This document shows, in pieces, positions 5,032 through 50,171 of a DNA stretch of 64,000 nucleotides (positions are counted from its first letter, which is position 1; the number at the start of each line of letters is the position of its first letter). Made by a program: the position numbers and the translations under genes. The stretch is from contig OY969574.1 of the NCBI GenBank assembly GCA_963701195.1, positions 1,884,446 through 1,948,445 of the forward strand, read 5' to 3'. Origin of the DNA: an uncultured Solirubrobacterales bacterium. GTDB lineage: Bacteria > Actinomycetota > Thermoleophilia > Solirubrobacterales > Solirubrobacteraceae. The notes beneath the pieces are model-generated. The model saw only the letters and a program-made list of their open reading frames with translations. It was not told the DNA's origin and ran no database searches.

Positions 5032-5916
5032 ATGCTGCTGCTGACCGGCGCAACGGGCGTGGTGGGCTCGGCGCTCCTGGAGCGCCTGCTGGCGCAGGGC
5101 ACTCCGGTGCGCTGCCTGGTGCGCGACCCGCGGCGGCTGGGGCCGCGGCGGGTACGGGTGCAGATCGCGCTCGGCGATCTCGCGGACCCGCCGTCGTTTC
5201 GCAACGCAATGCGCGGGGTGAGCACGGTGGTGCACCTGGCGGCCTCGATCCGCGATCAGCGGCAGGGGTCGATCGAGGAGCTGGACGGGATCGCCACGTG
5301 GCGCATGGTGCAGGCGGCCGAGCGCGCCGGGGTCGAGCGGTTCGTCTTCTGCTCGGCGATCGGCGCCGCCGCGCACCACCGCTCGCGCTTCCTTCGCGCG
5401 AAGGCGCTCGCCGAGCAGGCGGTGCGCGAGGCGCAGCTGCAGACGGTCGTGCTGGCGCCTTCGATCGTCTACGCGCCGGGCGACCGCTGGCTGACGTTGC
5501 TCGAACGTCTGGCGCTGCTGCCGGCGATGCCCGTCTCCGGGCGCGGGCGCGCGCTCTACCAGCCGATCTGGGCCGAGGACGTCGCGGACTGCCTGCTGGG
5601 CGCGCTGCGCTCAGGAACAGGCGCGAGCACACAGCGCTTCGAGCTGGCGGGCCCGCAGACGCTCAGCCACACGGACATCGTGCGGCTGGTGCTGCGCTCG
5701 CTGGGACGCCGGCGGGCGCTGGTCCACGTGCCCGCCCCGGTCGTCTTTCGCATCCTGCGCCTGCTGGAGAGCGTGGCGGGATCGCGCACCTTTGCGACGT
5801 GGGACGAAGCGGAGCTGATGGAGATCCCGATGGTCTCGGCCCGGGGCACCGCCGACGCCGAGCGTCTCGGCGTGCAGCCACAGCCGATGAGCGCGGTGCT
5901 GGCCGCCCTCGGTTGA
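5032..5916 (+). CDS. NAD(P)-dependent epimerase/dehydratase (atypical SDR, NDUFA9-like)
   Basis: LTGATGVVG Rossmann motif, VVHLAA, PSIVY, QPIWAEDVA. Confidence 0.88.
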   Translation: MLLLTGATGVVGSALLERLLAQGTPVRCLVRDPRRLGPRRVRVQIALGDLADPPSFRNAMRGVSTVVHLAASIRDQRQGSIEELDGIATWRMVQAAERAGVERFVFCSAIGAAAHHRSRFLRAKALAEQAVREAQLQTVVLAPSIVYAPGDRWLTLLERLALLPAMPVSGRGRALYQPIWAEDVADCLLGALRSGTGASTQRFELAGPQTLSHTDIVRLVLRSLGRRRALVHVPAPVVFRILRLLESVAGSRTFATWDEAELMEIPMVSARGTADAERLGVQPQPMSAVLAALG

Positions 5917-5941
5917 GAGCGGCCCCGCGAACGGCAGCCAG

Positions 5942-6114
5942 CACCTCACAGAGGAGGGGCGACACCTCACAAGGCGGCCGGCACCTCACACGGCAGCCGA
6001 CACCTCACACGGCAGCCGACACCTCACACGGCAGCCGTCACCTCACACGGCAGCCGTCACCTCACACGGCAGCCGTCACCTCACACGGCGGCCGTCACCT
6101 CACACGGCGGCCGG
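5942..6114. repeat. Intergenic minisatellite, about 9 copies of the 19-bp unit CACCTCACACGGC(A/G)GCCG(A/T/G)
   Basis: Units start at 5942 (21 bp), 5963, 5982, 6001, 6020, 6039, 6058, 6077 and 6096; lies between convergent genes. Confidence 0.95.
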
Positions 6115-6136
6115 CAGCTTGCACGCGGCCAGCAGC

Positions 6137-7582
6137 TCAAGCCGCGGCCAGCGCCGGGCGCCGCTGCGCCCACGGGCGAGCCTCTTCGAGCTGGGTGGCG
6201 AGCGCCAGCAGCGTGTCCTCGCGCGCGGGCGCCGCGGCGAGCTGCACGGCCAGTGGCAGCCCGTCCTCGCCCTGGAAGAGCGGCAGCGAGATCGCGGGCT
6301 GGCCGCTGGCGTTGAAGATCGGCGTAAACGGTGTGTAGAGGCCGGCGCGCGTGAACGCCTCGAACGGGTTGGACGCGTAGGGGTCGAGCGTGCCCAGCAT
6401 CAGCGGCCGCTCGGCGAGCGCGGGCGTGAGCAGCGCGTCGTAGGGCTCGAGGAACTCGACGAGCTGGCGCGTGAAGGCCTGCAGGCGCACGGTCGCGCCA
6501 AAGCCCTCGACCGCGTTCAGTTTGCCCACCATCGAGTAGATCGCCCAGCTCAACGGCTCCATGTCCTCTTCTGAGATCCCACCCGCCCCGCGCCCGGCGA
6601 CGATGCCCGAGAACGCGATCGAGAGACCGACGTGCGTGCAGAAGACGGCGCTGAACAGCTCGGTGATGCCGTCGACTTGCCACGGCGGATCGACCTCCTG
6701 CACGTCGTGGCCGAGTTCGCGCAGCAGGCCGGCGGCGTCCTGGACTGCCCGCGCACACTGCGGGTCGACGGCAGCCTCGGCGAGCGGGGGCAGCGTGGTG
6801 AGAGCGATCCGCAGGCGCTCTGGCACAGCGGCGGCCGCGGCGGCGAACGAGCGCGCCGGCGGCGGCGCCCAGCTGGCGTCGCCGACCTCGTAGCCGGCGA
6901 GCACGTCGAGGATCGCGGCGGTGTCGGCGACGGTGCGGCTGAGCACGCCGTCGATCCCCAGCAGCGACTCGCCCAGTTCGGGGGCGGCGGAGATGCGGCC
7001 GCGCTGGGGCTTGAGCCCGACCAGGCCGCAGCAGGCGGCGGGGATGCGGATCGAGCCGCCGCCGTCGTTGCCGTGCGCGACGGGCACCATGCCGGCGGCG
7101 ACCGCGGCGGCGGCGCCGCCGGAGGAGCCCCCGGGCGAGCGCTGCACGTCCCACGGGTTGCGCGTAGGACCGAACAGGCGCGTCTCGGTGGTCGGCAGGA
7201 TGCCGTACTCGGGCAGCGTCGTCGAGCCGACGACGACGAAGCCGGCGTCGCGCAGGCGCCGGGTGACGTTGTGGTCGTAGTCGGCGGTGAAGTCCTTCAG
7301 CAGCGGGCAGCCGTAGGTCAGCCGCAGGCCGCTGACGGGCCGGTTGTTCTTGATCGCGATCGGAACGCCCGCGAAGGGGCGCTCGTCACCCGGGCCGATC
7401 GCGCGTGCCGCATCCAGCGCGCGCTCGCCGTCGATGTCGACGAACGCGTTCAGGCGCGGGTTGAACTCCTCGATGCGCTCGAGCGAGGTCTGCACAAGCT
7501 CGCTGGCGGAAATCTCACCCGAGCGGACCATGCCGGCCAGCTCCAGCGCGGGACGGAACATCAGCTGATCGCGATCGGACAC
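6137..7582 (-). CDS. Amidase-signature family amidase
   Basis: [47 protein letters not shown]. Confidence 0.93.
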
Positions 7583-22796: not shown

Positions 22797-24362
22797 GTGG
22801 TCAGCTCGAAGCTCGATCTCGATCTCAACGTCGTCGACGCGTGCCGCGACGCGGCCGCGCGGATCGCCTCGCAGGTGGCGCAGGAGATCGGCGGGCGCAC
22901 CACCGTCTCGGTCGAGCGCACGGTCGCGCGGCTGCTCGGCGTCGACGGCGCGAACGCGCTCGAGGTGCCGCTGCCGAACGCGCTGATCGACCACGTGCGC
23001 GAGCGCGGCCAGCTCGGCTTCGGGATCGCCTACTGGCTGGGCAACGCGATGCTCCACCGCGAGCGCTCCGCGCAGCAGATCGCCGAGGAAGTCGATGCCG
23101 GCGAGCTGGCGCTGTGCGACGTGCCGCGCGCGAGCGAGGCCGCGATCCGCGAGCGGATCGGCACCGAGTGCGCCGCGCGCCTCGGGCAGATCGGCAAGCG
23201 CATGGAGGAGCGCCGCGCGCTGCGCGCGCGGCTGGGGGAGAGCCCTCCCCCCCTGCGCTACGTGCTGACCGCGACCGGCAACGTGTACGAGGACGTCGTG
23301 CACGGCCTGGCGGTCGCGGAGGCCGGCGGGGACATCGTCGCGGTGATCCGCTCGACCGCGCAGAGCCTGCTCGACTACGTCCCCTACGGCCCGAGCACCG
23401 AGGGCTACGGCGGCACCTTCGCCACGCAGGCGAACTTCGCGATCATGCGCGCCGCGCTCGACGAGTGGTCGCAGGCCAACGGCCGCTACGTGCGCCTGTC
23501 GAGCTTCTGCTCGGGCCTGTGCATGTCGGAGATCGCGACGATGGGCGCGATCGAGGGCCTTGACAACATGGTCAACGACGCGCTCTACGGGATCCTCTAC
23601 CGCGACATCAACATCCTGCGTGGGCTGATCGACCAGCGCGTCTCGCGCACGATCAACGGCTACTTCGGCGTCGTGATCAACACCGGCGAGGACAACTACC
23701 TGCGCACCGCCGACGGCCTGGAAGCGGCGCCGTCGGTGACCGCCTCGCAGTTCATCAACCACCAGCTGGCGCGCGACTCGGGCGTGCCCGACGAGCAGAT
23801 CGCGCTCGGCGACGCGTTCGAGATCGACCCGCCGACGCGCAACGGGCTGCTCTACCAGTGGGCGCAGGCCCAATTGACGCGCGAGCTGTTCCCCGCCTGC
23901 CCGGTGAAGTACATGCCGCCGACGCGCCACATGGACGGCAACCTGTTTCGCACGCACGCGTCGGACTCGCTGTTCAACCTGGTCACGGTCGCGACCGGCC
24001 AGGGCATCCAGACGATCGGCGTGCCGACCGAGGGGATCTTCACGCCGCACATCCACGACCGCGTGCTCGGCCTGCAGAACGCAGGCTACGTGTTCAACGC
24101 CGCGCGCGACCTCGGCGGCGAGATCGAGTTCAAGCGCGGCGGCATCATCCAGACGCGCGCGCAGGAAGTGCTCGGCGGCGCGCAACGGATCCTCGAGCAC
24201 ATCGCGCAGGTGGGGCTGATCGCCGCGGTCGACGAGGGCGTCTTCGGCGACGTCAGCCGCCGCGTCAACGAGGGCCGCGGGATCGAGGGGATCGTCGAAA
24301 CCGAGCTCGAGTACTTCAATCCCGCGACCGAGCTGATGCGGGGGTCGCTGAGCGTTGTCTGA
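22797..24362 (+). CDS. kamD: Lysine 5,6-aminomutase alpha subunit (PLP TIM barrel)
   Basis: SKLDLD...TTVSVERTVARLLGVDG, ATGNVYED, AVIRSTAQSLLDYVPYG, NDALYGILYRDIN, INTGEDNY, KYMPPT; 521 aa from GTG 22797. Confidence 0.93.
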   Translation: MVSSKLDLDLNVVDACRDAAARIASQVAQEIGGRTTVSVERTVARLLGVDGANALEVPLPNALIDHVRERGQLGFGIAYWLGNAMLHRERSAQQIAEEVDAGELALCDVPRASEAAIRERIGTECAARLGQIGKRMEERRALRARLGESPPPLRYVLTATGNVYEDVVHGLAVAEAGGDIVAVIRSTAQSLLDYVPYGPSTEGYGGTFATQANFAIMRAALDEWSQANGRYVRLSSFCSGLCMSEIATMGAIEGLDNMVNDALYGILYRDINILRGLIDQRVSRTINGYFGVVINTGEDNYLRTADGLEAAPSVTASQFINHQLARDSGVPDEQIALGDAFEIDPPTRNGLLYQWAQAQLTRELFPACPVKYMPPTRHMDGNLFRTHASDSLFNLVTVATGQGIQTIGVPTEGIFTPHIHDRVLGLQNAGYVFNAARDLGGEIEFKRGGIIQTRAQEVLGGAQRILEHIAQVGLIAAVDEGVFGDVSRRVNEGRGIEGIVETELEYFNPATELMRGSLSVV

Positions 24363-25209
24363 GGGCGACGGCGCACAGGCACCGGCGCAGAACGGCGAAA
24401 CGGGCGCCGGGACGCCGGCGCGCAAGGTCGACCTCGCGCACGTGAAGCCCTACGCCGACCAGCTCGGCGACGGGATCGTGCAGCTGAGCTTCACGCTGCC
24501 CGTCCCCTACGGCCTGGCGGCACGCCGGGCGGCGCTCGAGCTGGGCGCGAAGATGGGCCTGCAGCAGCCCGAGGTCGTCCACTACGAGGGCTTGACCGAC
24601 GGCTACACGTACTTCGTGATGTACGGCCACTGCACGCACACCGTCGACTACGCGACGCTGCAGGGCGAGGGCTTCGAGATCGAGTACATGAACGAGGAGC
24701 AGATCGAAGACTACGCGCGCGAGCACGTCGGGCGCCCGATCGTCGTCGTCGGCGCGAGCACCGGCACCGACACGCACAGCGTCGGCATCGACGCGATGCT
24801 CAACCTCAAGGGCTTCCACGGCCACAAGGGCCTGGAGGGCTACAGCGCGTTCCAGGCGCACAACCTCGGCAGCCAGGTCACCAACGGCACGCTCGTCGCG
24901 AAGGCGATCGAGCTGGACGCAGATGCGATCCTCGTCTCGCAGACCGTCACCCAGCAGAACCTGCACATCCACAACCTGACCGAACTGGTCGAGATCCTCG
25001 AGGCCGAGGGCCGCCGGCGGCGCACGATCCTCGCCTGCGGCGGCCCGCGCGTCTCCAACGAGCTGGCCAAGGAGCTGGGCTACGACGCGGGCTTCTCGAA
25101 AGGCACGTATCCCCACCACCTGGCGACGTTCCTCGTGCGCGAGCTGGCCGCGCGGCTGGCCGAGTCCGGCGAGGACGCCGAGGCGGCCCGCAGCGCCCCG
25201 GCCGGGTAG
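24355..25209 (+). CDS. kamE: Lysine 5,6-aminomutase beta subunit (adenosylcobalamin-binding)
   Basis: VKPYAD..GDGIVQLSFTLP; base-off/His-on motif DTHSVG; PLP Lys in NLKG; SQTVTQ; CGGPR; overlaps the kamD stop. Confidence 0.93.
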   Translation: MSEGDGAQAPAQNGETGAGTPARKVDLAHVKPYADQLGDGIVQLSFTLPVPYGLAARRAALELGAKMGLQQPEVVHYEGLTDGYTYFVMYGHCTHTVDYATLQGEGFEIEYMNEEQIEDYAREHVGRPIVVVGASTGTDTHSVGIDAMLNLKGFHGHKGLEGYSAFQAHNLGSQVTNGTLVAKAIELDADAILVSQTVTQQNLHIHNLTELVEILEAEGRRRRTILACGGPRVSNELAKELGYDAGFSKGTYPHHLATFLVRELAARLAESGEDAEAARSAPAG

Positions 25210-25222
25210 GCTCCAGCCCGTC

Positions 25223-26746
25223 ATGAGCGAGCAGCGCGACGCGCCGCAGGAGGAGCAGCCAGGGGACGACGCCGCGGGCGGCGCCGACGAGCGCCACGCC
25301 AAGCTCCAGCGCCTGCGCGCACAGGGCGTGGAGCCCTACCCGTACATCGACACGCGCGTGCCGCGCACGTGGATCGCCGACATCCAGGGCGCCCACGACC
25401 CCTCGCAGCTGGCGGCCGGCGAGCATGAAGGCTTGGTCTACCGGATCGCCGGGCGCATGATCGCCCGCCGCGGGCACGCGAAGACGACGTTCTTCGACGT
25501 GCGCGACCAGTCCGGCACGATGCAGGTCGTCGCGCGCGCCGAGGCGCTGGGCGAGGATGCCTACGCGGCGATGACCGACCTCGACGTCGGCAACATCGTC
25601 GCAGTCGAGGGCTGCGTCTACATCACCAAGCGCGGCGAACTGACGCTCGCGGTGAAGCGGTGGACGATGCTCGCCAAGGCGCTGCGCCCGCCGCCGGACC
25701 GCTACCACGGCATGGAGGACCCCGGCGCGCGCTACCGCCACCGCGAACTGGACCTGCTCGCCAACGAGCGCACGCGAGAGATGTTCTTCAAGCGCACGAA
25801 GACGATCGAGGCGATCCACGACTTCCTGCGCTCGCGCGGCTTCACCCAGGTCGAGACGCCGATGCTGCAAACGCTCGCGGGCGGCGCCGCCTCGCGGCCG
25901 TTCGTCACCCACCACAACGCGCTGGACGTCGACGTCTACCTGCGCATCTCGGTCGAGCTGTACCTCAACCGCTGCATCGTCGGGGGCCTCGAGAACATCT
26001 ACGACCTGGGGCGCGCGTTTCGCAACGAGGGCATCTCCCACCGCCACAGCCCCGAGTTCACGATCCTCGAGTGGATGATGTCCTACGCCGACTACTGGGA
26101 CGTCGCGAAGATGACCGAAGACATGGCCGAGTCGGTGGCGCTGCAAACGCTCGGTACGACCAAGGTCGAGCAGTTCGACGGCAGCACGGTCGACTTCGCC
26201 ACGCCGTGGCAGCGGATCACGCTGCAGGACGCGATCAAAAACGCGGTCGGCATCGACTTCCTGGCGGCGAGCGAGCAGGAGCTGCTGGACGTGCTCGACG
26301 GCGAAGCGGACCCCGACGCGAACTGGGCGAAGCTCGTCGACGCGATCTACGTCAAGCACGTCGAACCGACGCTGATGGCGCCCACGCACGTGTTCGACTT
26401 CCCGGTGGACCTGTTTCCGATCTGCAAGCGTCACTCGCGGGAGCCGCGCCTCTCAGAGCACTTCGACTCGGTGATCCGCGGAATGGAGATCCTTTCCGGC
26501 GACACCGAGCTGAACGATCCGCTGGACCAGCACCAACGCTTTGTCACCCAGCGCCAACAGGCCGCGGGCGGGGATGACGACCAGCCGCAGCCGAACGACG
26601 AGGCGTACGTGCGCGCGCTGGAATACGGGATGGCGCCGACGGCGGGGGGCGGGCTCGGGGTTGACCGGCTTTTGATGGTGCTCACCGGGGTCGAGGCGAT
26701 GCGCGAGGTCGTGCCGTTCCCCACGCTGCGTGCCGCGCGGGGGTGA
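25223..26746 (+). CDS. Class II lysyl-tRNA synthetase paralog (OB-fold plus catalytic domain) with an altered amino-acid pocket
   Basis: GGAASRPFVTHHNAL, FRNEG, ELNDP and GLGVDR motifs present; canonical ELY/EFY and NGF/NAF pocket motifs replaced by EWM and SGD. Confidence 0.85.
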   Translation: MSEQRDAPQEEQPGDDAAGGADERHAKLQRLRAQGVEPYPYIDTRVPRTWIADIQGAHDPSQLAAGEHEGLVYRIAGRMIARRGHAKTTFFDVRDQSGTMQVVARAEALGEDAYAAMTDLDVGNIVAVEGCVYITKRGELTLAVKRWTMLAKALRPPPDRYHGMEDPGARYRHRELDLLANERTREMFFKRTKTIEAIHDFLRSRGFTQVETPMLQTLAGGAASRPFVTHHNALDVDVYLRISVELYLNRCIVGGLENIYDLGRAFRNEGISHRHSPEFTILEWMMSYADYWDVAKMTEDMAESVALQTLGTTKVEQFDGSTVDFATPWQRITLQDAIKNAVGIDFLAASEQELLDVLDGEADPDANWAKLVDAIYVKHVEPTLMAPTHVFDFPVDLFPICKRHSREPRLSEHFDSVIRGMEILSGDTELNDPLDQHQRFVTQRQQAAGGDDDQPQPNDEAYVRALEYGMAPTAGGGLGVDRLLMVLTGVEAMREVVPFPTLRAARG

Positions 26747-32043: not shown

Positions 32044-35000
32044 TTATAGTGCTATGTTCTTGTGTCTGGCGGCGACTTGTTTGCCGACGGTGAGCGTGAG
32101 TGTGAGTGTGAGGTGGGTCTTGTGGTGTCGGTGCGCCGCGGTCCGTCTGCTCGCCGTGTACGCGAGGGTGTAGCTGTGCTTGCCCGGGCTCACTGCGCGT
32201 CGTACGAGCGTTTTCAGGCCGTTGCCCGCGATCCGCAGGCGGCCCTTCATCGTGGTCTTGACGGTGACGGTCAGCCCGTGCTTGCCGGCCTTCGCTTTGA
32301 CGAGCTTGACTTCGGGCTTGGCCGGCGGGCAGCCTTCGATCTTGAGTTTGACGTTTTCGTTGTGCGGGAGGCCGTTCTGGGCGGTCATGTCAACCGGGGC
32401 GACCATTTCCTGCCCGCACTGGCTGGCCTGGGCGCGTCCGACCGTGCGTGCGCTGGTGAACTGCGAGTACTGCTTGTGCGGGAGGCTCGCTTCAAACGTG
32501 CTGAACGGCGCGTCCGGGACCGACGGGAACGTGACCTTCAGCACGCTCTTGGAGGACACCGACGATTCGCCTTCGACTACGAGGGTAACGCCTTCACCCT
32601 GAAGCACCATCGCGACATTCGGAAATTTCGCGCTCCCATACGAGACGAGATAGATCGGGCCGCTCAGCGGATTGGAGAGGATCGGCGTGTGCACCGTCGC
32701 GGTGCCGATACTCGACGCAGCCGGACACGTAGCGGGGTTAGCTTCAAATGTTGCCGCCAGGCAGGCCTGGCGCAGCGTTTCCAGCCTGACCGGCAACTGC
32801 GTCGGGAACGAGATCGTGGTCTTGGCGATGTTGGACTGCGTCACCGACGGGTAGGCGATCTTGACGTTCACGCCCGTGCCTTCGGCTTTGCTCGCCTTCG
32901 CTTCGGTCGCGATCGTCGTCGTCGGCGTAAACGACAGCGCACGGCAGTCCTGTACCGCCAATGGGCTCGAAACGTTCTCGCGCGCACCTTCGGCAGAGCC
33001 GATCGTGCCAGTCGTCTGCAACGACTGGCAGCTCGTGGGGTTCAGCACGAATTCCTGGTTGCTGATCGAGAGCTGCGCGAAGCGGATTCGCAGCGGCACG
33101 CCGTCGAGTATCTGCGGGAAGTCGCTGCTCGTCGCGTCGACCTGCGCGGTGCGCGGGTTGACCGTCAGCGCGGCGCGCACCAGCACATAGCCGAGGTTGA
33201 ACGGTCCCGCAGTGGCGGGCACGACGATCGACAGGCCGAACGGCGCGCCTGCGTAGGGGCCGGTGAAGTAGACCTTGCCCGTCACGTAGTAGGGCTCGCT
33301 GCCCGACCCCACCGCGACAGTCGCTGTCCCGATCTGGCTCTTCGGGGGGCAGACTTCGGCAGCCTGCGAAGCGAGCGCAGCCGGGCACTGTTCCACCCGC
33401 GAAACGTACGCCAGCAGCCCGGGCGGCAGCGTCGTGGCGAGCGAGAGGATGCTCTGTTCGCGATCGCGCCGTTCCATCGTGAGCACGAACGGGCTGGTGG
33501 CGCCCGCCGCGTGGCTCGTCGTATCGGCCGTGAACGACGGCGCGAACGGCGGCGTCACAGGGCACGGTTCGCCCGCTCCGTTCCAGTCGACGTTGAAGTA
33601 GTCCGACGGGAACGCTTCGCCGGTGTACGGCGAGGCCCACGAGCTGATCTGGCCTTCGCTGACCGCATTCCCGCACGTCTGCGGGTTGGCGAGCGGCGCG
33701 CGCGCGCCGCCGGCCGTGGAGACCGTCAGGCTCGAGAGCGGGAACTGCGGGTTTTCTTCGAAGATCGTCGTGATCCGGCCGGTTTCCGGGTCGACCGACG
33801 CGTGCCCGGCGAGCTTGATCACGACACCCGATTCCGGCGCCTGCAGTTCGAGGTAGACCCTGAACAGCCTGCCCTCAGCCGCGTACTTCGGGCTGCATTC
33901 TTCCTGACCCAGGCCGCCGCATTCGGGCTCAGCGACAAATAGATGCCCTTCCAGCTGATCGTGAAGCAGTGGCGTGCTCGCCCTAACCGTCGCGATCTGC
34001 GACGCTTCCGGGCAGTGCCCCGCGGCAAGCCGCTTGAGGCCGTCGGCGCCCATTTCTTCGGATTCTTCGCCTTCGATATTGATCCCTTGCGGTCCGGATT
34101 CCTGGCAGGCCTCGAGCCCGTTCGCGCCCGAAGGCGAGATCGTCGTGCCCGCGGGCAGCGCGACCGTGACATTCTTGACCGGCGGGGTACCCAAGCCCGT
34201 CCCGCCGTTGGGCGCCTGCGGGACCTTCAGGCCCACTTCGTAACCCGACGGCGCAGCCGCTTGCGTCGTCTGCGGCTTGACACTGAGCGTCGAAGTGAAG
34301 CTCAACAGGTTGCAGCCTTCGAGCTTGGAGAACGCGAGAGCGGAGCCTTTGAGCATCACGCCCGGTTCCTTCCAAGTGTCAAATTCCACCTGGGCTTCCC
34401 TCGCGGACTGATCCGCTTCGCAGTCGCTCGGATCCGTCACGAACGCGCCGCGGTCAAACGTGGATTCTTCCTGGTTTTCGCGGATGTAGCGTTCTTCGAT
34501 ATCTCCGTAGAACGTCGCGATCGCACCGACAAACGACGCAATGCCGGCTATGTCTGGAACGGCGACACGCACGACATAGTGCCCATCGCGTCTCACCACG
34601 GTCGCGTACATGAAGAACGTAAGATTGTTGAATGCAAACGCGAACTCCGCTGCATAGCCCTTCTCCGGGGTAACGCTGTAAATCCCGCGTACGTGCGTCG
34701 GATCGACACTGTGCGCGAACACGTGGTTCAAGATCATCGGCAAAATCGATCCCGCTCGGCTCGACTGCGGACAGCCACTCAACGCGTTCTTTGCTTCCAC
34801 AAGCGACGCCGGGCACTGATTCAGAACAGTCGGGTTACCGAGGAACCCCAGCGGCAGATAGAATTCGAGATTCTTCATCGGCTCCACCGGTTTAAATTCT
34901 TCGATATTGCTCACATTTTCATCACGCATATCATTTGCGGTAAACGTCGTGACGGTAAGATTTGGATGCCCAGCCGCCTGTCGAAACGGTTCACCAGTCG

Positions 35001-35574
35001 GCCCTGTCTCCTGAAACCCAAATTGCTCTACTCCCGAAGGAGCAGTTTCGTGTTCACCCCCAACACGCGTGACCGCTTCATCGCCGGCGCTTTTAGCTCC
35101 ACCACCACTCACGCTCGCGACATCGCGCAGCAGACCTTCAATGTGGCTTTCGACTTCATATTCCACGGTCACGACCATGAACCCGGTCGGGACCGTAGGT
35201 TCAAGGTAATGGCATTCAACTTCAGTGCCACTCAACAAGGAACATTCCGATGCTTCTTCAGGTTCCGCCCTGGTAGCAGTAACCTTCAACCCGGCCGGCA
35301 GCACATCTTTCACCGTCACTTCGCCACCACTCGCCAACCCACCGATGTTCTCCACAATCACATAATATCGACCCTTACGATTCACGCCCTGCGGCTGAAC
35401 AGTGGGAAACGCCACAACCGTCGCCTGCCACGCCGGCGCCGCCGCACCAGTCACAGCAACAGCCCGCACCGCACCAAACCACAGACCACAAACACACAGC
35501 GCTACCCACACACCGGCAAAACGCGACCCACGACCTGCGGTCAACGATCGGCACCCGAAAACGCGAACCATCAC
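32044..35574 (-). CDS. Large (1176-aa) secreted modular protein, copy A
   Basis: N-terminal signal, four C..CPxxSx(I/A)(G/A) modules, basic C-terminal tail; start overlaps the upstream stop (TGATG). Confidence 0.85.
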   Translation of the reverse strand: MMVRVFGCRSLTAGRGSRFAGVWVALCVCGLWFGAVRAVAVTGAAAPAWQATVVAFPTVQPQGVNRKGRYYVIVENIGGLASGGEVTVKDVLPAGLKVTATRAEPEEASECSLLSGTEVECHYLEPTVPTGFMVVTVEYEVESHIEGLLRDVASVSGGGAKSAGDEAVTRVGGEHETAPSGVEQFGFQETGPTGEPFRQAAGHPNLTVTTFTANDMRDENVSNIEEFKPVEPMKNLEFYLPLGFLGNPTVLNQCPASLVEAKNALSGCPQSSRAGSILPMILNHVFAHSVDPTHVRGIYSVTPEKGYAAEFAFAFNNLTFFMYATVVRRDGHYVVRVAVPDIAGIASFVGAIATFYGDIEERYIRENQEESTFDRGAFVTDPSDCEADQSAREAQVEFDTWKEPGVMLKGSALAFSKLEGCNLLSFTSTLSVKPQTTQAAAPSGYEVGLKVPQAPNGGTGLGTPPVKNVTVALPAGTTISPSGANGLEACQESGPQGINIEGEESEEMGADGLKRLAAGHCPEASQIATVRASTPLLHDQLEGHLFVAEPECGGLGQEECSPKYAAEGRLFRVYLELQAPESGVVIKLAGHASVDPETGRITTIFEENPQFPLSSLTVSTAGGARAPLANPQTCGNAVSEGQISSWASPYTGEAFPSDYFNVDWNGAGEPCPVTPPFAPSFTADTTSHAAGATSPFVLTMERRDREQSILSLATTLPPGLLAYVSRVEQCPAALASQAAEVCPPKSQIGTATVAVGSGSEPYYVTGKVYFTGPYAGAPFGLSIVVPATAGPFNLGYVLVRAALTVNPRTAQVDATSSDFPQILDGVPLRIRFAQLSISNQEFVLNPTSCQSLQTTGTIGSAEGARENVSSPLAVQDCRALSFTPTTTIATEAKASKAEGTGVNVKIAYPSVTQSNIAKTTISFPTQLPVRLETLRQACLAATFEANPATCPAASSIGTATVHTPILSNPLSGPIYLVSYGSAKFPNVAMVLQGEGVTLVVEGESSVSSKSVLKVTFPSVPDAPFSTFEASLPHKQYSQFTSARTVGRAQASQCGQEMVAPVDMTAQNGLPHNENVKLKIEGCPPAKPEVKLVKAKAGKHGLTVTVKTTMKGRLRIAGNGLKTLVRRAVSPGKHSYTLAYTASRRTAAHRHHKTHLTLTLTLTVGKQVAARHKNIAL

Positions 35575-36185
35575 ACACCCCTCCGACCCAGCCGCTTACC
35601 CTGCACCCTCAACGCACGACCCCGTCGCTTCCTATGGACCTTACTGCTCTTCTTACGGGTCTTTTTGCTCTTTGACGGCTTGCCAGGCTTTTTGGTCACG
35701 CTCGCAGGCCGCGTACCAGAACCCCGTCGCCGACGGAAAGTCGCCTTCAGCGGCGCTCGCTGCCACGCCAGTCCCGCCACCCACCGGCACGGCACCTTCA
35801 CAAGTGCTCGGTACGCATACAGCGGACTCGCCCTGTACAGGCCCAGGCGGAAACCCACCACCAACACGCGCATCATAAATATCACGCTGAAACCCATCGA
35901 CGTCACTAGTCAACAACGGATCCGCCGTCGATACCAGAACATTCGAACCATCTTCATCCATCCCATAAACGAAAGCACCACACGTAGACCCTTTATTCAA
36001 CTGCACATCACGACCATCCGACAACAAATACACTTTACCCGCAGAAATTGGGCCTTCACTACGAAACTCATACACACTTTTACACCCAAGTGACGACGCA
36101 GACCGAGCACGTGGACTCAATTCACCCGCCGTCTGAAACACCACCGTCCTACCATCAGACGACACATCCAACCGATTTTCAGAGG
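32073..36185. repeat. Direct repeat block 1, copy A (about 4.1 kb), near-identical to 40403..44514
   Basis: Translated ORFs are identical in several frames at offset 8330; the only difference I saw is the extra A at 35720-35721. Confidence 0.9.
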
Positions 36186-39992: not shown

Positions 39993-40283
39993 TCATCGGT
40001 CGCCGCCAGCCCGCACATCGATCACCGCTACGCCCGGCACAGCCGCGCGCGCGAGCTGCTGCAGCTGCGCCGAGTCGAAGCTGTGCGCCCGCGGCGCGAC
40101 CGGGTTGACAGTCACCACGCACAGCCGCAACGGCGCGAGCACGCGGATCTCAAGGCCCCGCTCGCGGTACCACCCGGGCCCGCGCTTATCGAGGAATACC
40201 CGCGTCGGATCGGCGACGACCAGCTCCAGCTCTCCCACGATCGCGACGCGCAGCGCCGGCTCGATCGCTTCCGATAGCAGCAC
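39993..40283 (-). pseudogene. kamB: Internally deleted copy of kamB (first ~15 codons fused in frame to the last ~80)
   Basis: VLLSEAIEPALRVAIVG joined to ELVVADPTRVFLDKRGPGWYRERGLEIR..., matching both ends of 49128..50156. Confidence 0.85.
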
Positions 40284-40373
40284 GCAGCGAAGGGTACTCA
40301 CGTACGAAACGGTGCGAAGACCGCCCGCGCGCGCGCCGGCTGAGCGGCGTCCGCAGAGCGCGCAGAGCGCGCG

Positions 40374-43300
40374 CTATAGCGTCGTGTTCTTGTGCGCCAG
40401 ACCGACTTGTTTGCCGACGGTGAGCGTGAGTGTGAGTGTGAGGTGGGTCTTGTGGTGTCGGTGCGCCGCGGTCCGTCTGCTCGCCGTGTACGCGAGGGTG
40501 TAGCTGTGCTTGCCCGGGCTCACTGCGCGTCGTACGAGCGTTTTCAGGCCGTTGCCCGCGATCCGCAGGCGGCCCTTCATCGTGGTCTTGACGGTGACGG
40601 TCAGCCCGTGCTTGCCGGCCTTCGCTTTGACGAGCTTGACTTCGGGCTTGGCCGGCGGGCAGCCTTCGATCTTGAGTTTGACGTTTTCGTTGTGCGGGAG
40701 GCCGTTCTGGGCGGTCATGTCAACCGGGGCGACCATTTCCTGCCCGCACTGGCTGGCCTGGGCGCGTCCGACCGTGCGTGCGCTGGTGAACTGCGAGTAC
40801 TGCTTGTGCGGGAGGCTCGCTTCAAACGTGCTGAACGGCGCGTCCGGGACCGACGGGAACGTGACCTTCAGCACGCTCTTGGAGGACACCGACGATTCGC
40901 CTTCGACTACGAGGGTAACGCCTTCACCCTGAAGCACCATCGCGACATTCGGAAATTTCGCGCTCCCATACGAGACGAGATAGATCGGGCCGCTCAGCGG
41001 ATTGGAGAGGATCGGCGTGTGCACCGTCGCGGTGCCGATACTCGACGCAGCCGGACACGTAGCGGGGTTAGCTTCAAATGTTGCCGCCAGGCAGGCCTGG
41101 CGCAGCGTTTCCAGCCTGACCGGCAACTGCGTCGGGAACGAGATCGTGGTCTTGGCGATGTTGGACTGCGTCACCGACGGGTAGGCGATCTTGACGTTCA
41201 CGCCCGTGCCTTCGGCTTTGCTCGCCTTCGCTTCGGTCGCGATCGTCGTCGTCGGCGTAAACGACAGCGCACGGCAGTCCTGTACCGCCAATGGGCTCGA
41301 AACGTTCTCGCGCGCACCTTCGGCAGAGCCGATCGTGCCAGTCGTCTGCAACGACTGGCAGCTCGTGGGGTTCAGCACGAATTCCTGGTTGCTGATCGAG
41401 AGCTGCGCGAAGCGGATTCGCAGCGGCACGCCGTCGAGTATCTGCGGGAAGTCGCTGCTCGTCGCGTCGACCTGCGCGGTGCGCGGGTTGACCGTCAGCG
41501 CGGCGCGCACCAGCACATAGCCGAGGTTGAACGGTCCCGCAGTGGCGGGCACGACGATCGACAGGCCGAACGGCGCGCCTGCGTAGGGGCCGGTGAAGTA
41601 GACCTTGCCCGTCACGTAGTAGGGCTCGCTGCCCGACCCCACCGCGACAGTCGCTGTCCCGATCTGGCTCTTCGGGGGGCAGACTTCGGCAGCCTGCGAA
41701 GCGAGCGCAGCCGGGCACTGTTCCACCCGCGAAACGTACGCCAGCAGCCCGGGCGGCAGCGTCGTGGCGAGCGAGAGGATGCTCTGTTCGCGATCGCGCC
41801 GTTCCATCGTGAGCACGAACGGGCTGGTGGCGCCCGCCGCGTGGCTCGTCGTATCGGCCGTGAACGACGGCGCGAACGGCGGCGTCACAGGGCACGGTTC
41901 GCCCGCTCCGTTCCAGTCGACGTTGAAGTAGTCCGACGGGAACGCTTCGCCGGTGTACGGCGAGGCCCACGAGCTGATCTGGCCTTCGCTGACCGCATTC
42001 CCGCACGTCTGCGGGTTGGCGAGCGGCGCGCGCGCGCCGCCGGCCGTGGAGACCGTCAGGCTCGAGAGCGGGAACTGCGGGTTTTCTTCGAAGATCGTCG
42101 TGATCCGGCCGGTTTCCGGGTCGACCGACGCGTGCCCGGCGAGCTTGATCACGACACCCGATTCCGGCGCCTGCAGTTCGAGGTAGACCCTGAACAGCCT
42201 GCCCTCAGCCGCGTACTTCGGGCTGCATTCTTCCTGACCCAGGCCGCCGCATTCGGGCTCAGCGACAAATAGATGCCCTTCCAGCTGATCGTGAAGCAGT
42301 GGCGTGCTCGCCCTAACCGTCGCGATCTGCGACGCTTCCGGGCAGTGCCCCGCGGCAAGCCGCTTGAGGCCGTCGGCGCCCATTTCTTCGGATTCTTCGC
42401 CTTCGATATTGATCCCTTGCGGTCCGGATTCCTGGCAGGCCTCGAGCCCGTTCGCGCCCGAAGGCGAGATCGTCGTGCCCGCGGGCAGCGCGACCGTGAC
42501 ATTCTTGACCGGCGGGGTACCCAAGCCCGTCCCGCCGTTGGGCGCCTGCGGGACCTTCAGGCCCACTTCGTAACCCGACGGCGCAGCCGCTTGCGTCGTC
42601 TGCGGCTTGACACTGAGCGTCGAAGTGAAGCTCAACAGGTTGCAGCCTTCGAGCTTGGAGAACGCGAGAGCGGAGCCTTTGAGCATCACGCCCGGTTCCT
42701 TCCAAGTGTCAAATTCCACCTGGGCTTCCCTCGCGGACTGATCCGCTTCGCAGTCGCTCGGATCCGTCACGAACGCGCCGCGGTCAAACGTGGATTCTTC
42801 CTGGTTTTCGCGGATGTAGCGTTCTTCGATATCTCCGTAGAACGTCGCGATCGCACCGACAAACGACGCAATGCCGGCTATGTCTGGAACGGCGACACGC
42901 ACGACATAGTGCCCATCGCGTCTCACCACGGTCGCGTACATGAAGAACGTAAGATTGTTGAATGCAAACGCGAACTCCGCTGCATAGCCCTTCTCCGGGG
43001 TAACGCTGTAAATCCCGCGTACGTGCGTCGGATCGACACTGTGCGCGAACACGTGGTTCAAGATCATCGGCAAAATCGATCCCGCTCGGCTCGACTGCGG
43101 ACAGCCACTCAACGCGTTCTTTGCTTCCACAAGCGACGCCGGGCACTGATTCAGAACAGTCGGGTTACCGAGGAACCCCAGCGGCAGATAGAATTCGAGA
43201 TTCTTCATCGGCTCCACCGGTTTAAATTCTTCGATATTGCTCACATTTTCATCACGCATATCATTTGCGGTAAACGTCGTGACGGTAAGATTTGGATGCC

Positions 43301-43904
43301 CAGCCGCCTGTCGAAACGGTTCACCAGTCGGCCCTGTCTCCTGAAACCCAAATTGCTCTACTCCCGAAGGAGCAGTTTCGTGTTCACCCCCAACACGCGT
43401 GACCGCTTCATCGCCGGCGCTTTTAGCTCCACCACCACTCACGCTCGCGACATCGCGCAGCAGACCTTCAATGTGGCTTTCGACTTCATATTCCACGGTC
43501 ACGACCATGAACCCGGTCGGGACCGTAGGTTCAAGGTAATGGCATTCAACTTCAGTGCCACTCAACAAGGAACATTCCGATGCTTCTTCAGGTTCCGCCC
43601 TGGTAGCAGTAACCTTCAACCCGGCCGGCAGCACATCTTTCACCGTCACTTCGCCACCACTCGCCAACCCACCGATGTTCTCCACAATCACATAATATCG
43701 ACCCTTACGATTCACGCCCTGCGGCTGAACAGTGGGAAACGCCACAACCGTCGCCTGCCACGCCGGCGCCGCCGCACCAGTCACAGCAACAGCCCGCACC
43801 GCACCAAACCACAGACCACAAACACACAGCGCTACCCACACACCGGCAAAACGCGACCCACGACCTGCGGTCAACGATCGGCACCCGAAAACGCGAACCA
43901 TCAC
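40374..43904 (-). CDS. Large (1176-aa) secreted modular protein, copy B
   Basis: Identical to copy A except the last ~9 residues (GLAHKNTTL vs AARHKNIAL). Confidence 0.85.
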   Translation of the reverse strand: MMVRVFGCRSLTAGRGSRFAGVWVALCVCGLWFGAVRAVAVTGAAAPAWQATVVAFPTVQPQGVNRKGRYYVIVENIGGLASGGEVTVKDVLPAGLKVTATRAEPEEASECSLLSGTEVECHYLEPTVPTGFMVVTVEYEVESHIEGLLRDVASVSGGGAKSAGDEAVTRVGGEHETAPSGVEQFGFQETGPTGEPFRQAAGHPNLTVTTFTANDMRDENVSNIEEFKPVEPMKNLEFYLPLGFLGNPTVLNQCPASLVEAKNALSGCPQSSRAGSILPMILNHVFAHSVDPTHVRGIYSVTPEKGYAAEFAFAFNNLTFFMYATVVRRDGHYVVRVAVPDIAGIASFVGAIATFYGDIEERYIRENQEESTFDRGAFVTDPSDCEADQSAREAQVEFDTWKEPGVMLKGSALAFSKLEGCNLLSFTSTLSVKPQTTQAAAPSGYEVGLKVPQAPNGGTGLGTPPVKNVTVALPAGTTISPSGANGLEACQESGPQGINIEGEESEEMGADGLKRLAAGHCPEASQIATVRASTPLLHDQLEGHLFVAEPECGGLGQEECSPKYAAEGRLFRVYLELQAPESGVVIKLAGHASVDPETGRITTIFEENPQFPLSSLTVSTAGGARAPLANPQTCGNAVSEGQISSWASPYTGEAFPSDYFNVDWNGAGEPCPVTPPFAPSFTADTTSHAAGATSPFVLTMERRDREQSILSLATTLPPGLLAYVSRVEQCPAALASQAAEVCPPKSQIGTATVAVGSGSEPYYVTGKVYFTGPYAGAPFGLSIVVPATAGPFNLGYVLVRAALTVNPRTAQVDATSSDFPQILDGVPLRIRFAQLSISNQEFVLNPTSCQSLQTTGTIGSAEGARENVSSPLAVQDCRALSFTPTTTIATEAKASKAEGTGVNVKIAYPSVTQSNIAKTTISFPTQLPVRLETLRQACLAATFEANPATCPAASSIGTATVHTPILSNPLSGPIYLVSYGSAKFPNVAMVLQGEGVTLVVEGESSVSSKSVLKVTFPSVPDAPFSTFEASLPHKQYSQFTSARTVGRAQASQCGQEMVAPVDMTAQNGLPHNENVKLKIEGCPPAKPEVKLVKAKAGKHGLTVTVKTTMKGRLRIAGNGLKTLVRRAVSPGKHSYTLAYTASRRTAAHRHHKTHLTLTLTLTVGKQVGLAHKNTTL

Positions 43905-44514
43905 ACACCCCTCCGACCCAGCCGCTTACCCTGCACCCTCAACGCACGACCCCGTCGCTTCCTATGGACCTTACTGCTCTTCTTACGGGTCTTTTTGCTC
44001 TTTGACGGCTTGCCAGGCTTTTTGGTCACGCTCGCAGGCCGCGTACCAGACCCCGTCGCCGACGGAAAGTCGCCTTCAGCGGCGCTCGCTGCCACGCCAG
44101 TCCCGCCACCCACCGGCACGGCACCTTCACAAGTGCTCGGTACGCATACAGCGGACTCGCCCTGTACAGGCCCAGGCGGAAACCCACCACCAACACGCGC
44201 ATCATAAATATCACGCTGAAACCCATCGACGTCACTAGTCAACAACGGATCCGCCGTCGATACCAGAACATTCGAACCATCTTCATCCATCCCATAAACG
44301 AAAGCACCACACGTAGACCCTTTATTCAACTGCACATCACGACCATCCGACAACAAATACACTTTACCCGCAGAAATTGGGCCTTCACTACGAAACTCAT
44401 ACACACTTTTACACCCAAGTGACGACGCAGACCGAGCACGTGGACTCAATTCACCCGCCGTCTGAAACACCACCGTCCTACCATCAGACGACACATCCAA
44501 CCGATTTTCAGAGG
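40403..44514. repeat. Direct repeat block 1, copy B
   Basis: Matches 32073..36185. Confidence 0.9.
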
Positions 44515-49127: not shown

Positions 49128-50156
49128 CTACCGGCCGCCGGAACGCACGTCCAGCACCCGAACCCCGGGCACAGCCGCGCGCACGAGCTGCTGCAGCCGC
49201 GCCGAGTCAAAGCTGTGCGCCCGCGGCGCAACCGGGTTGACGGTCACCGCGCACAGTCGCAGCGACGCCAGCGCGCGGATCTCAAGGCCCCGCTCGCGAT
49301 ACCACCCGGGCCCGCGCTTGTCGAGGAAGACCCGCGTCGAATCGGCGACGACCAGCTCCAGCCCCCTCCCACGCGTCGCCGCAAGCAGCTCGCTCAAGAA
49401 CGGCTCGCACAGCGCACCGCCCAGCACGAGGCGCCGCGCGCGCGGATGGGCGCGCAGCAACACGACCAGCTCGGCAGCGGTGCTCGTCAACGCAAAGCGC
49501 GCCGGCAGCACGACCGGCGCCATACCGTCGTCGCCAAGCAGCACCGTGTCGCCGCCCGCCAACGCGCGCACGCTGCCGTCCTGCACGACCGGCAGTCGAA
49601 TCAGCTCCACCGCGTCACGCGTCAACGCAGCGACCCGCTCGGGCTCCTCGGCCAACACGGCGCCGGTCGCGAGCACGATGCCGTCGCAGACCGCGGGCGA
49701 GGAGGCGGCGCGGCGGTCGATCGCACCGTCGACGAGCACCAGCTCCGCGCCGTGCACGAGCATCGCGTCGGCGACCGCGCGGACCTCTTCGGCGACGCCC
49801 GGCCCCGCGACCTCAACGGCGCCCTCGCGCTCCAGGCGCGCGACCAGCACGCGCCCCAGCGGCGTACGGATACCCGTCTGCTCGACCAGCTCGAGCGGCA
49901 GTGCGCTCGCGCGCAGCAGCGCGTCGGTGCTCGCAACGAGGCTACCCGCGGCAAGCGTCACGGAAGGCTTCTCGATCCGCGCATCGATCGCGTCGCGCGC
50001 CTCGCCGTCGCGGCCGACCGAGGTCACGCCAACCGTGCGCCCCTGCGCGCGCAGCTCGCGCAGCAGCGCGTTCAGCGTTTCCGTCTTGCCTGTGTTCTTC
50101 GCCAACCCCACGATCGCGACGCGCAGCGCCGGCTCGATCAGTTCGGACAGCAGCAC
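49128..50156 (-). CDS. kamB: Lysine 5,6-aminomutase reactivase subunit KamB-like P-loop protein
   Basis: IVGLAKNTGKT, TSVGRDGE, EKP, EVAGP and LVDGAIDRRAASSPAVCDGIVLATGAV, as in clostridial KamB-family proteins (recognised from memory). Confidence 0.72.
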   Translation of the reverse strand: MLLSELIEPALRVAIVGLAKNTGKTETLNALLRELRAQGRTVGVTSVGRDGEARDAIDARIEKPSVTLAAGSLVASTDALLRASALPLELVEQTGIRTPLGRVLVARLEREGAVEVAGPGVAEEVRAVADAMLVHGAELVLVDGAIDRRAASSPAVCDGIVLATGAVLAEEPERVAALTRDAVELIRLPVVQDGSVRALAGGDTVLLGDDGMAPVVLPARFALTSTAAELVVLLRAHPRARRLVLGGALCEPFLSELLAATRGRGLELVVADSTRVFLDKRGPGWYRERGLEIRALASLRLCAVTVNPVAPRAHSFDSARLQQLVRAAVPGVRVLDVRSGGR

Positions 50157-50171
50157 AAGCGTGGAGGGTAC

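Follow-up and report, generated by a model that had tools for sequence, protein, structure and literature searches.

Why should a second lysyl-tRNA synthetase (LysRS), with the site for its amino acid rebuilt, be encoded directly behind the two subunits of a lysine aminomutase? The question is raised by a stretch of 64,000 nucleotides, hereafter the window, on contig OY969574.1 of an uncultured Solirubrobacterales bacterium (GCA_963701195.1, positions 1,884,446 to 1,948,445 of the forward strand). Its genome (G000) is a 4.19-Mb, single-contig metagenome-assembled genome (MAG) of the Solirubrobacteraceae, 90% complete. Three genes are at issue: kamD and kamE, for the subunits of a predicted lysine 5,6-aminomutase, and lysS*, for a class II LysRS paralogue that we call LysRS*. 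On the sequence evidence set out below, LysRS* is best explained as a neofunctionalised LysRS paralogue that would work as a unit with the lysine 5,6-aminomutase, with an isomer of lysine, and not lysine itself, as its probable substrate. The specific reading that we favour, at a probability of roughly 0.45, is that LysRS* activates 2,5-diaminohexanoate and probably esterifies it to tRNA-Lys. The features on which this argument turns are as follows (window positions).

22797-24362, plus strand: kamD, lysine 5,6-aminomutase alpha subunit (TIM barrel), 521 aa; NF052384, PF09043 full length
24355-25209, plus strand: kamE, lysine 5,6-aminomutase beta subunit, 284 aa as called; dimerisation and B12-binding Rossmann domains
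25223-26746, plus strand: lysS* (LysRS*), class II LysRS paralogue of type B, 507 aa; TIGR00499, OB domain and class II core
25442-25672, plus strand: OB-fold anticodon-binding domain of LysRS* (residues 74-150); PF01336, E 5.7e-13
25946-25969, plus strand: ISVELYLN segment of LysRS* (LysU 237-244 in the LysU alignment); E240 kept, A238S, P239V, K244N
26045-26077, plus strand: HSPEFTILEWM segment of LysRS* (LysU 270-280); H270, F274, E278 kept, N271S, Y280M
26459-26509, plus strand: HFDSVIRGMEILSGDTE segment of LysRS* (LysU 412-428); E421, E428 kept, R412H, E414D, N424S, F426D

The amino acid pocket of LysRS*

LysRS* falls within the lysS family by curated models, scoring 472.8 bits on TIGR00499 lysS (cut-off 427.6) and 544.9 bits on PRK00484 (cut-off 468); it has the tRNA_anti-codon OB and tRNA-synt_2 domains and the motifs FRNE, HSPEFTILEWM, EHFDSVIRGMEILSGDTE and ISVELYLN. 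Residues were numbered by phmmer alignment to E. coli LysU (PDB 1e1o), in which the chain index equals the literature numbering (R262 in FRNE, E240 in APELYLK). Relative to LysU, the protein of the window carries Y280M, N424S, F426D, A238S, P239V, K244N, N271S, R412H and E414D. By the structures and mutagenesis of LysU, E240, E278, Y280, N424, F426 and E428 line the lysine site; among the ligands, Y280, E278 and E428 hold the epsilon-amine, F426 is an aromatic platform, and G216, E240 and E278 hold the alpha-amino group. Three of the six direct lysine contacts are replaced in LysRS*, and the replacements cluster in the motif 2 region, the closing loop and the pocket strand. The initial annotation, made from the letters of the window, had described kamD, kamE and the ligase as contiguous on one strand, with a kamD/kamE overlap and a 13-bp gap, had reported the OB-fold, FRNE and the DR of motif 3 as kept, and had read Y280M, N424S and F426D as changes in the pocket. 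All of this stands: the open reading frame (ORF) coordinates agree, with an 8-bp overlap of kamD and kamE and 13 bp between the kamE stop (25209) and the lysS* ATG (25223), the DR is D479-R480 (GVDR), and the three substitutions are confirmed by the alignment to LysU 1e1o.

Conservation was assessed in 125 LysRS* sequences aligned with 54 canonical LysRS and LysU. G216, A217, E240, R262, E264, H270, F274, E278, E421, E428 and R480 are kept in 100% of LysRS* (R262, E264, H270, F274, E421 and R480 being the residues for ATP, Mg and motifs 2 and 3), and in the OB domain 16 of the 18 positions invariant among canonical enzymes are retained, with R72, R77, F84 and Q95 each at 100% of the 125 sequences. 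The replacements A238S, T/P239V, K244N, E256D, N271S, Y392F, S397F, A400T/C, R412H and E414D are fixed in LysRS*, as are Y280M (L in one subtype), N424S and F426D. Serine 424 and aspartate 426 are found in 125/125 LysRS*, compared with N424 in 51/54 canonical sequences and F or Y at 426 in 54/54. S238, V239 and N244 are each at 100% (canonical A in 53/54, T or P, and K in 54/54), S271 occurs in 125/125, and H412, D414 and G425 are each at 100%. Position 280 is Y in 53/54 canonical sequences, M in LysRS* of types A and B, and L in type C (types as described below). For loci selected by a sequence pattern, the values at positions 424-428 are circular; for loci found by homology they are not, and the other positions were never selected on.

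The same replacement stands out in a wider sample. Among the 150 nearest 50%-cluster representatives, drawn from 1.84 billion proteins, 135 have F, Y or W at residue 426 and only 8 have D, all eight being members of the LysRS* paralogue clade. LysRS* orthologues in 19 genomes of the same genus share the pocket at 55-58% identity (82% in G022), and because it is unchanged in orthologues only 55-58% identical overall, the pattern is not due to chance. The ratio of nonsynonymous to synonymous substitution rates (dN/dS) is 0.23-0.24 within each subtype (about 0.24 in that of the window), compared with 0.34 for the canonical copies. The low dN/dS together with the fixed pocket points to a constrained, retooled enzyme and not a decaying one. 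As far as its sequence tells, LysRS* keeps the machinery for making an aminoacyl-adenylate and for holding a tRNA with U35 in the anticodon, and only the side-chain site and the closing loop have been remade.

The aminomutase module, its linkage and its ancestry

The partner subunits are assigned at the level of equivalog models. KamD scores 756.6 bits on NF052384 (cut-off 600) and aligns end to end with the alpha chains of solved D-lysine 5,6-aminomutases (8t0v, 9q1a and 1xrs; E 1e-167 to 1e-178), and KamE scores 356.5 bits on NF052385 (cut-off 280) and contains PF16554 and PF02310. The NF052385 match starts at residue 29 of the kamE ORF, and the true start of kamE may lie further downstream than called. 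In relatives, the fourth gene of the module encodes the reactivase subunit KamB (300 bits, cut-off 210), and the KamB proteins of G022, G002 and G023 carry the Walker A motif GLAKNTGKT. By family membership, KamDE is a B12- and pyridoxal phosphate (PLP)-dependent lysine 5,6-aminomutase, and KamB a subunit of its reactivase. The ancestral module included kamB.

Linkage was surveyed with a degenerate DNA pattern for E-x-x-S-G-D-[ST]-E-x-[NT]-D-P, run on the GTDB species collection. At least 120 contigs matched, and 119 of the matches listed encode LysRS*. Among the matches listed, nearly all titles are Solirubrobacterales or Solirubrobacteraceae (L068 is an uncultured Actinomycetota), and the sole contig without LysRS*, titled 'delta proteobacterium', is without any LysRS homologue. 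The genes occur in three arrangements, i.e., lysS*-kamD-kamE-kamB (type A), kamD-kamE-(kamB)-lysS* (type B and some A) and lysS*-aminotransferase (type C). Among 120 LysRS* genes in the public contigs listed, 84 are linked to kamDE, 3 to kamB at a cut flank and 21 to the aminotransferase; the remaining 12 abut the end of the locus on the partner's side. Within the genus, kamD is present in 116/151 genomes; 41 other genera of the family, sampled with 116 genomes, gave 0/116. Of the 151 genomes of the genus, 141 have the LysRS* motif, as do 115/116 kamD carriers, and it lies within a few kb of kamD wherever coordinates were compared. Genomes with two copies of kamD have two copies of the motif (G230, G255, G265, G299, G312 and G333 among the examples), and the listed genomes that lack kamD carry the SGDSE subtype, except G250 (SGDTE) and G261 (no motif).

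A and B modules stand side by side on some contigs (L080, L122), and on one JGI metagenome contig only (L218, 1958-4234) KamE and LysRS* form an in-frame fusion of 758 aa, in which the stop codon and spacer have been lost by deletion. LysRS* and its partner have stayed adjacent through rearrangements, duplications, a change of partner and a fusion. Since every carrier is a member of one genus, the counts overstate the independence of these cases. A comparison of the KamD tree with LysRS* type had 15 rows only and was uninformative. In two genomes, G003 (L213) and G004 (L214), many frameshifts run through lysS*-kamD-kamE-kamB; co-decay of the module was considered and rejected in favour of sequencing error, since all four genes are hit and both are low-quality long-read MAGs.

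In type C, the partner is a class III aminotransferase, closest to diaminobutyrate-2-oxoglutarate transaminases and below the model cut-offs (503.8 vs 671; 388 vs 401.6), with gamma-aminobutyrate (GABA) and diaminobutyrate (DABA) transaminases and fold-type-I racemases as its nearest solved relatives. The type C pair and the type A module occupy the same chromosomal slot, between the same flanking backbone genes. Most of the genomes that lack kamD have such an aminotransferase-linked LysRS* at this position. Type C LysRS* has the subtype residues L280, S427 and S473, and the pocket subtype follows the partner enzyme. On contig L128, a type A kamDEB-lysS* has a convergent, type C-style aminotransferase gene (5680-7047, 67% identity) some 1 kb downstream, so that one locus can have both partner enzymes.

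LysRS* is encoded in addition to a canonical enzyme. The canonical LysRS of the same genome lies at C1:3367419-3369002 (509.7 bits; motifs HNPEFTMVEWY, IANAFSE and IATELYLK), and a canonical lysS is also present in all 19 genomes of the genus with an intact full-length LysRS* and in 5 further genomes. The latter five are negative for a DNA pattern of the canonical motif, which misses real canonical genes; a hidden Markov model (HMM) recovered canonical lysS in 5/5 of them. Since canonical lysS is present in every genome checked, LysRS* is an addition and never the sole LysRS there. In the other families of the order, LysRS is canonical and single-copy, and kamD does not lie next to it; the same holds for 52 of 61 sampled genomes of the phylum. 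The other nine of these Actinomycetota genomes (e.g., G085) gave no class II LysRS at E<=1e-60 and presumably use a class I LysRS. In the tree, LysRS* types A, B (that of the window) and C are each monophyletic and jointly form one clade (Shimodaira-Hasegawa-like approximate likelihood ratio test, SH-aLRT, 100), sister to canonical Solirubrobacterales LysRS; its stem measures 0.49 substitutions per site. Rapid change and then stasis, as this branch appears to record, is the pattern expected of neofunctionalisation. These results answer the doubts that the initial annotation had raised about its own proposal, namely a sole lysS in the genome, a kamDE linkage restricted to this locus, and substitutions scattered as in a decaying gene: a separate canonical lysS is present, the linkage to kamDE is conserved, with several orders of the genes, across the genus (well over 100 species), and the pocket changes are fixed under purifying selection.

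A search of representatives returned more LysRS paralogues in the same superclade (SH-aLRT 99). Two of them, P0132 and P0140, have the full LysRS* signature (S238, N244, M280, F397, H412, D414, S424, D426) and are encoded on phage-like contigs (L251/L299, Logan SRR29078110, 73.6 kb; L253-L255) with tail-collar, collagen-like, Acb1 and ThyX genes, PHROG matches, 54-64% GC and many small co-directional ORFs. Searches of known phages and IMG/VR gave no close relative of LysRS*, the best matches being 44% identical and of canonical type, and a tRNA scan of loci L251-L255 found none. A defence system was considered and set aside, PADLOC giving no match for LysRS*, KamD, KamE, KamB or the phage homologues. 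A further paralogue, P0121 (L259 7001-8551; F280, S424, C426, D428), is encoded in an operon with ArgG-like, AstA, AstB, Fmt-like and ArgH-like genes, possibly a tRNA-dependent route for an amino acid resembling arginine or ornithine. P0129 and P0157 carry E240Q. The gene for P0129 (E240Q, S280, D426; L256 3592-5124, L257 1621-3153) starts 18 bp after a tRNA-Arg(UCU) and has ThiF/rhodanese, ThiS, PALP and JAB genes as neighbours. Together, these paralogues suggest that ligases derived from LysRS have radiated more widely, onto basic non-protein amino acids, than has been described.

In the window itself, kamB is displaced from the module of which it is part in relatives: it is inverted, about 22 kb off, on the far side of a duplicated low-GC insert, and its product is 62.6% identical to the in-module KamB of G022.

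49128-50171, minus strand: kamB, aminomutase reactivase subunit; NF052386 equivalog, 290.7 bits, cut-off 210
39993-40373, minus strand: partial kamB copy, C-terminal ~75 residues; NF052386 55.2 bits, profile positions 251-326 only

The insert (window 26800-50200; GC 0.54-0.66) contains a tandem duplication of ~8.3 kb with two near-identical ORFs of 1176/1183 aa at 32044-35595 and 40374-43925. The partial kamB, within which a tblastn match to KamB falls (40011-40229), is a remnant of this tandem duplication. The first 26 kb of the window are at 70% G+C, and the nearest protein relatives carry Solirubrobacteraceae MAG annotation. A divergent Lhr helicase gene lies 44 bp upstream of kamD, and unrelated minus-strand genes with no family assignment follow lysS* on its 3' side. 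No promoter, terminator or Rfam element was found between kamD, kamE and lysS*, the promoter/terminator scan not rising above shuffles. Control by a riboswitch or T-box was rejected, with zero Rfam families at gathering score in the window and four related loci.

Substrate, acceptor and competing explanations

Which isomer could the mutase supply? In lysine fermentation, KamDE acts beside enzymes that were searched for in the source genome. The KamA family (TIGR00238 lysine 2,3-aminomutase) had no match in the single-contig genome, Kal had none, the best match to Kce reached 154 bits against a cut-off of 382, and a profile search of the genome with the KamC ATPase model NF052383 (508 positions) gave no match at E<=0.001. 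With KamA, Kce, Kal and KamC not found (Kdd was outside the search), KamDE here does not serve lysine fermentation. As far as is known, the Solirubrobacteraceae are aerobic soil bacteria and not fermenters. Of the substrates first put forward for the ligase, 2,5-diaminohexanoate stays as the candidate; beta-lysine and 3,5-diaminohexanoate are left without an evident source, as there is no 2,3-aminomutase of the KamA family.

In the scheme that we propose, KamDE would take alpha-lysine and move its terminal amine from C6 to C5, giving 2,5-diaminohexanoate ('5-methylornithine'). With Asp at 426 and the Tyr hydroxyl lost at 280, the pocket would suit an amine on C5 with a terminal methyl beyond it, judging from the structures of LysU with lysine. 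Asp426, its carboxylate beside C4-C5 of the bound chain, could pair with the amine now one carbon nearer the backbone, and Met280 could pack against the new terminal methyl, Met/Leu280 forming a hydrophobic end to the pocket. LysRS* would then activate 2,5-diaminohexanoate, with tRNA-Lys the most likely acceptor of the ester. In sister species, type C LysRS* and the diaminobutyrate-type class III aminotransferase may fill the same role, the latter supplying a related diamino acid with a distal amine. Once charged, the product could be used at Lys codons in translation, serve as donor in a tRNA-dependent transfer, or close into a lactam. A larger claim can be framed, and we hold it as possible and rather doubtful: an aminoacylation not seen before, in which KamDE makes 2,5-diaminohexanoate and LysRS* loads it onto tRNA-Lys, for genus-wide entry into proteins or a tRNA-dependent product, with the related ligases of the phage-like contigs and the ArgG/AstAB/Fmt-like operon doing likewise for other basic non-protein amino acids.

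Several observations weigh against charging of 2,5-diaminohexanoate to tRNA-Lys. A dedicated tRNA was looked for, and neither the window nor the surroundings of the module in 10 relatives contain one; the genome had no match to the MprF C-terminal domain (PF09924) and no FemAB. On the phage-like contigs no kamDE was seen within 21 kb, which is the strongest argument that the ligase may act independently of KamDE. For positions 424-428 the surveys by motif are partly circular, and an AlphaFold2 (AF2) model of LysRS* built from a 21-row alignment was poor (predicted local distance difference test, pLDDT, 52.5). The chemistry poses two difficulties as well. Ornithine-type aminoacyl adenylates and esters readily cyclise, and for that reason 2,5-diaminohexanoyl-tRNA may be short-lived. 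The clostridial KamDE prefers D-lysine, and an aminoacyl-tRNA synthetase (aaRS) for a D-amino acid would be unusual, which leaves the stereochemistry uncertain.

The tRNA-Lys genes of the genome are CUU and UUU only. ARAGORN also made some odd calls in the genome, and these come down to false positives in GC-rich sequence, att-like repeats of the 3' part of a tRNA-Thr, or a probable tRNA-Sec. At G000:C1:2584435-2584703, two direct repeats of the 3' half of a tRNA-Thr(CGU) stand behind the gene and are miscalled as 88-nt tRNA-Arg; these repeats look like attachment-site scars of integrated elements. The 91-nt tRNA at G000:C1:682838-682928, called Asp(gtc), is probably tRNA-Sec: its extra arm is long, and a TCA lies one base further on. 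A search of open-access full text found no paper linking lysine 5,6-aminomutase or diaminohexanoate with LysRS or tRNA, although commas probably defeated part of this search, and the literature on LysRS2 and lysine analogues added nothing.

The same genes could be explained by resistance. LysRS* would then be an analogue-insensitive LysRS that places L-lysine on tRNA-Lys and is neither inhibited nor fooled by the diamino acid of its neighbour (2,5-diaminohexanoate in the case of KamDE, diaminobutyrate or a similar compound in that of the aminotransferase), so that translation continues while the analogue accumulates as a catabolic intermediate or a secreted antimetabolite. A duplicated target beside biosynthetic genes is the classic signature of resistance, LysRS* passes the curated lysS cut-offs, and it keeps E278 and E428, which bind the epsilon-amine, along with a full anticodon domain of the tRNA-Lys type. 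The phage-like contigs, with the same pocket and no kamDE in view, fit a stand-alone LysRS and so count here and against our own reading. We nevertheless consider this explanation unlikely. An enzyme for lysine would have given up three of its six lysine contacts, among them 426, which is aromatic in 135/150 of the nearest representatives, and the added Asp near C5 should attract a C5 amine and not exclude it. A resistant copy leaves the sensitive copy still mischarging, and no checked genome has lost the canonical copy while keeping LysRS*. The module holds no exporter or further biosynthetic genes, and two KamDEB sets go with two diverged LysRS* copies, which would be needless for generic resistance.

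LysRS* might instead be a ligase that forms an adenylate but serves something other than a translating tRNA. It could attach the KamDE product to a protein or a small molecule, much as EpmA attaches beta-lysine to EF-P, drive the ATP-dependent closure of a lactam, or make dinucleoside polyphosphates as LysU does (diadenosine tetraphosphate, Ap4A). A pairing of aminomutase and LysRS paralogue mirrors EpmB/EpmA, spontaneous cyclisation of ornithine-like adenylates is established chemistry, and neither a tRNA-dependent transferase nor a private tRNA was found. The tip lysine of elongation factor P (EF-P) is present in the genome (KPGKGG), and EpmA and EpmB are both absent from it. EF-P was tried as the acceptor and rejected: its loop reads KPGKGGAF in the genus and equally in 17 further genera of the family, which have neither LysRS* nor KamDE. 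LysRS* falls well short of the EpmA model, and the R/F/Q residues of its OB domain are fully conserved at 55% identity, whereas EpmA, AsnA and other paralogues that do not act on tRNA have lost this domain. On this balance a non-tRNA acceptor seems improbable.

A role in upkeep of the mutase is much harder to sustain. LysRS* would occupy the slot of KamC, either as an ATP-using partner of KamB that reactivates the aminomutase after suicide inactivation or as a lysine/ATP-sensing regulator of KamDE. KamB is present in a genome with no match to KamC, LysRS* is about 500 aa long, binds ATP and a lysine-like ligand and takes the fourth module position, and a KamE-LysRS* fusion exists. An ATPase has no need of fully conserved aminoacylation and anticodon-binding residues, however, and KamB has its own Walker A motif; in addition, type C LysRS* pairs with an aminotransferase in the absence of KamB and KamDE. 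We regard this role as very improbable. Finally, that LysRS* is a redundant or decaying lysS duplicate whose adjacency to kamDE is inherited synteny of no functional meaning can be all but dismissed, for while shared ancestry within one genus inflates the counts and two genomes have frameshifted modules, the ORFs are intact in more than 100 species at a dN/dS of about 0.23, with invariant catalytic residues, fixed pocket replacements and an adjacency kept through rearrangements and module duplications, and the frameshifts break all four genes in low-quality long-read MAGs in the manner of sequencing error.

Charging of 2,5-diaminohexanoate by LysRS* would matter for several reasons. To our knowledge, synthetase paralogues with a changed amino acid and a retained tRNA-binding domain are very rare, PylRS and SepRS being the textbook cases, and amino-acid-switched synthetases are the raw material for genetic-code expansion. 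Here, a conserved and chemically sensible change of the LysRS pocket is tied, in more than 100 species, to the enzyme predicted to make 5-methylornithine from lysine. If LysRS* charges tRNA, it would show how a non-canonical basic amino acid is naturally brought into tRNA-dependent chemistry, synthetic biology would gain a pocket already shaped for residues like ornithine, and the B12-dependent lysine 5,6-aminomutase would acquire a new, non-fermentative role in bacteria regarded as aerobic. Any 2,5-diaminohexanoate in proteins would be isobaric with lysine and escape ordinary mass-based proteomics. If LysRS* is an analogue-proof LysRS instead, 2,5-diaminohexanoate would be a natural LysRS antimetabolite.

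Comparison with known systems

Each half of the module has well-described relatives. In the lysine fermentation cluster (kamA, kamB/C, kamD/E, kdd, kce, kal), KamD, KamE and KamB have counterparts in the same families, of which those of the window are equivalog-level members; in the module of the window, a LysRS paralogue stands where the fermentation genes would be. With canonical LysS/LysU (1e1o, 3a74, 9jkl), LysRS* shares the two-domain architecture, an end-to-end alignment and the residues of motifs 1-3, and it differs in its replaced pocket (Y280M, N424S and F426D plus about nine fixed changes) and long branch.

Additional synthetases with special uses have been described before. LysX, the MprF-LysRS fusion of mycobacteria, is likewise a second LysRS of actinobacteria and puts Lys-tRNA to a non-translational use; LysX keeps the lysine pocket, whereas LysRS* does not, and LysRS* scores 449 bits on the LysX model NF002821 against a cut-off of 742. 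The self-resistance copies of aaRS in producers of mupirocin, indolmycin, borrelidin and albomycin also place a second synthetase beside analogue-making enzymes. Those copies keep their contacts with the cognate substrate, in contrast to LysRS*, which replaces three of six and has no exporter or longer pathway in its module.

The pyrrolysine cassette (pylT, pylS, pylBCD) resembles the module in that a synthetase is encoded beside lysine-remodelling enzymes. PylB, a lysine mutase, gives 3-methylornithine, where KamDE would give 5-methylornithine (2,5-diaminohexanoate). No dedicated or suppressor tRNA and no equivalents of PylC or PylD were found with LysRS*, and with 22.7 bits on PylS_Cterm (cut-off 178) it is a class IIb LysRS derivative and not a PylRS. 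EpmB/EpmA (YjeK/PoxA-GenX) follows the same two-part logic, i.e., a lysine aminomutase with a class II LysRS paralogue whose altered pocket activates the isomer. LysRS* scores 182.3 bits on the EpmA model TIGR00462 (cut-off 286.9); EpmA, whose target is EF-P, no longer has the anticodon-binding domain, whereas LysRS* has kept that domain with its R/F/Q residues, and where EpmB is a 2,3-aminomutase of the radical S-adenosylmethionine (SAM) type, the partner of LysRS* is a predicted B12/PLP 5,6-aminomutase.

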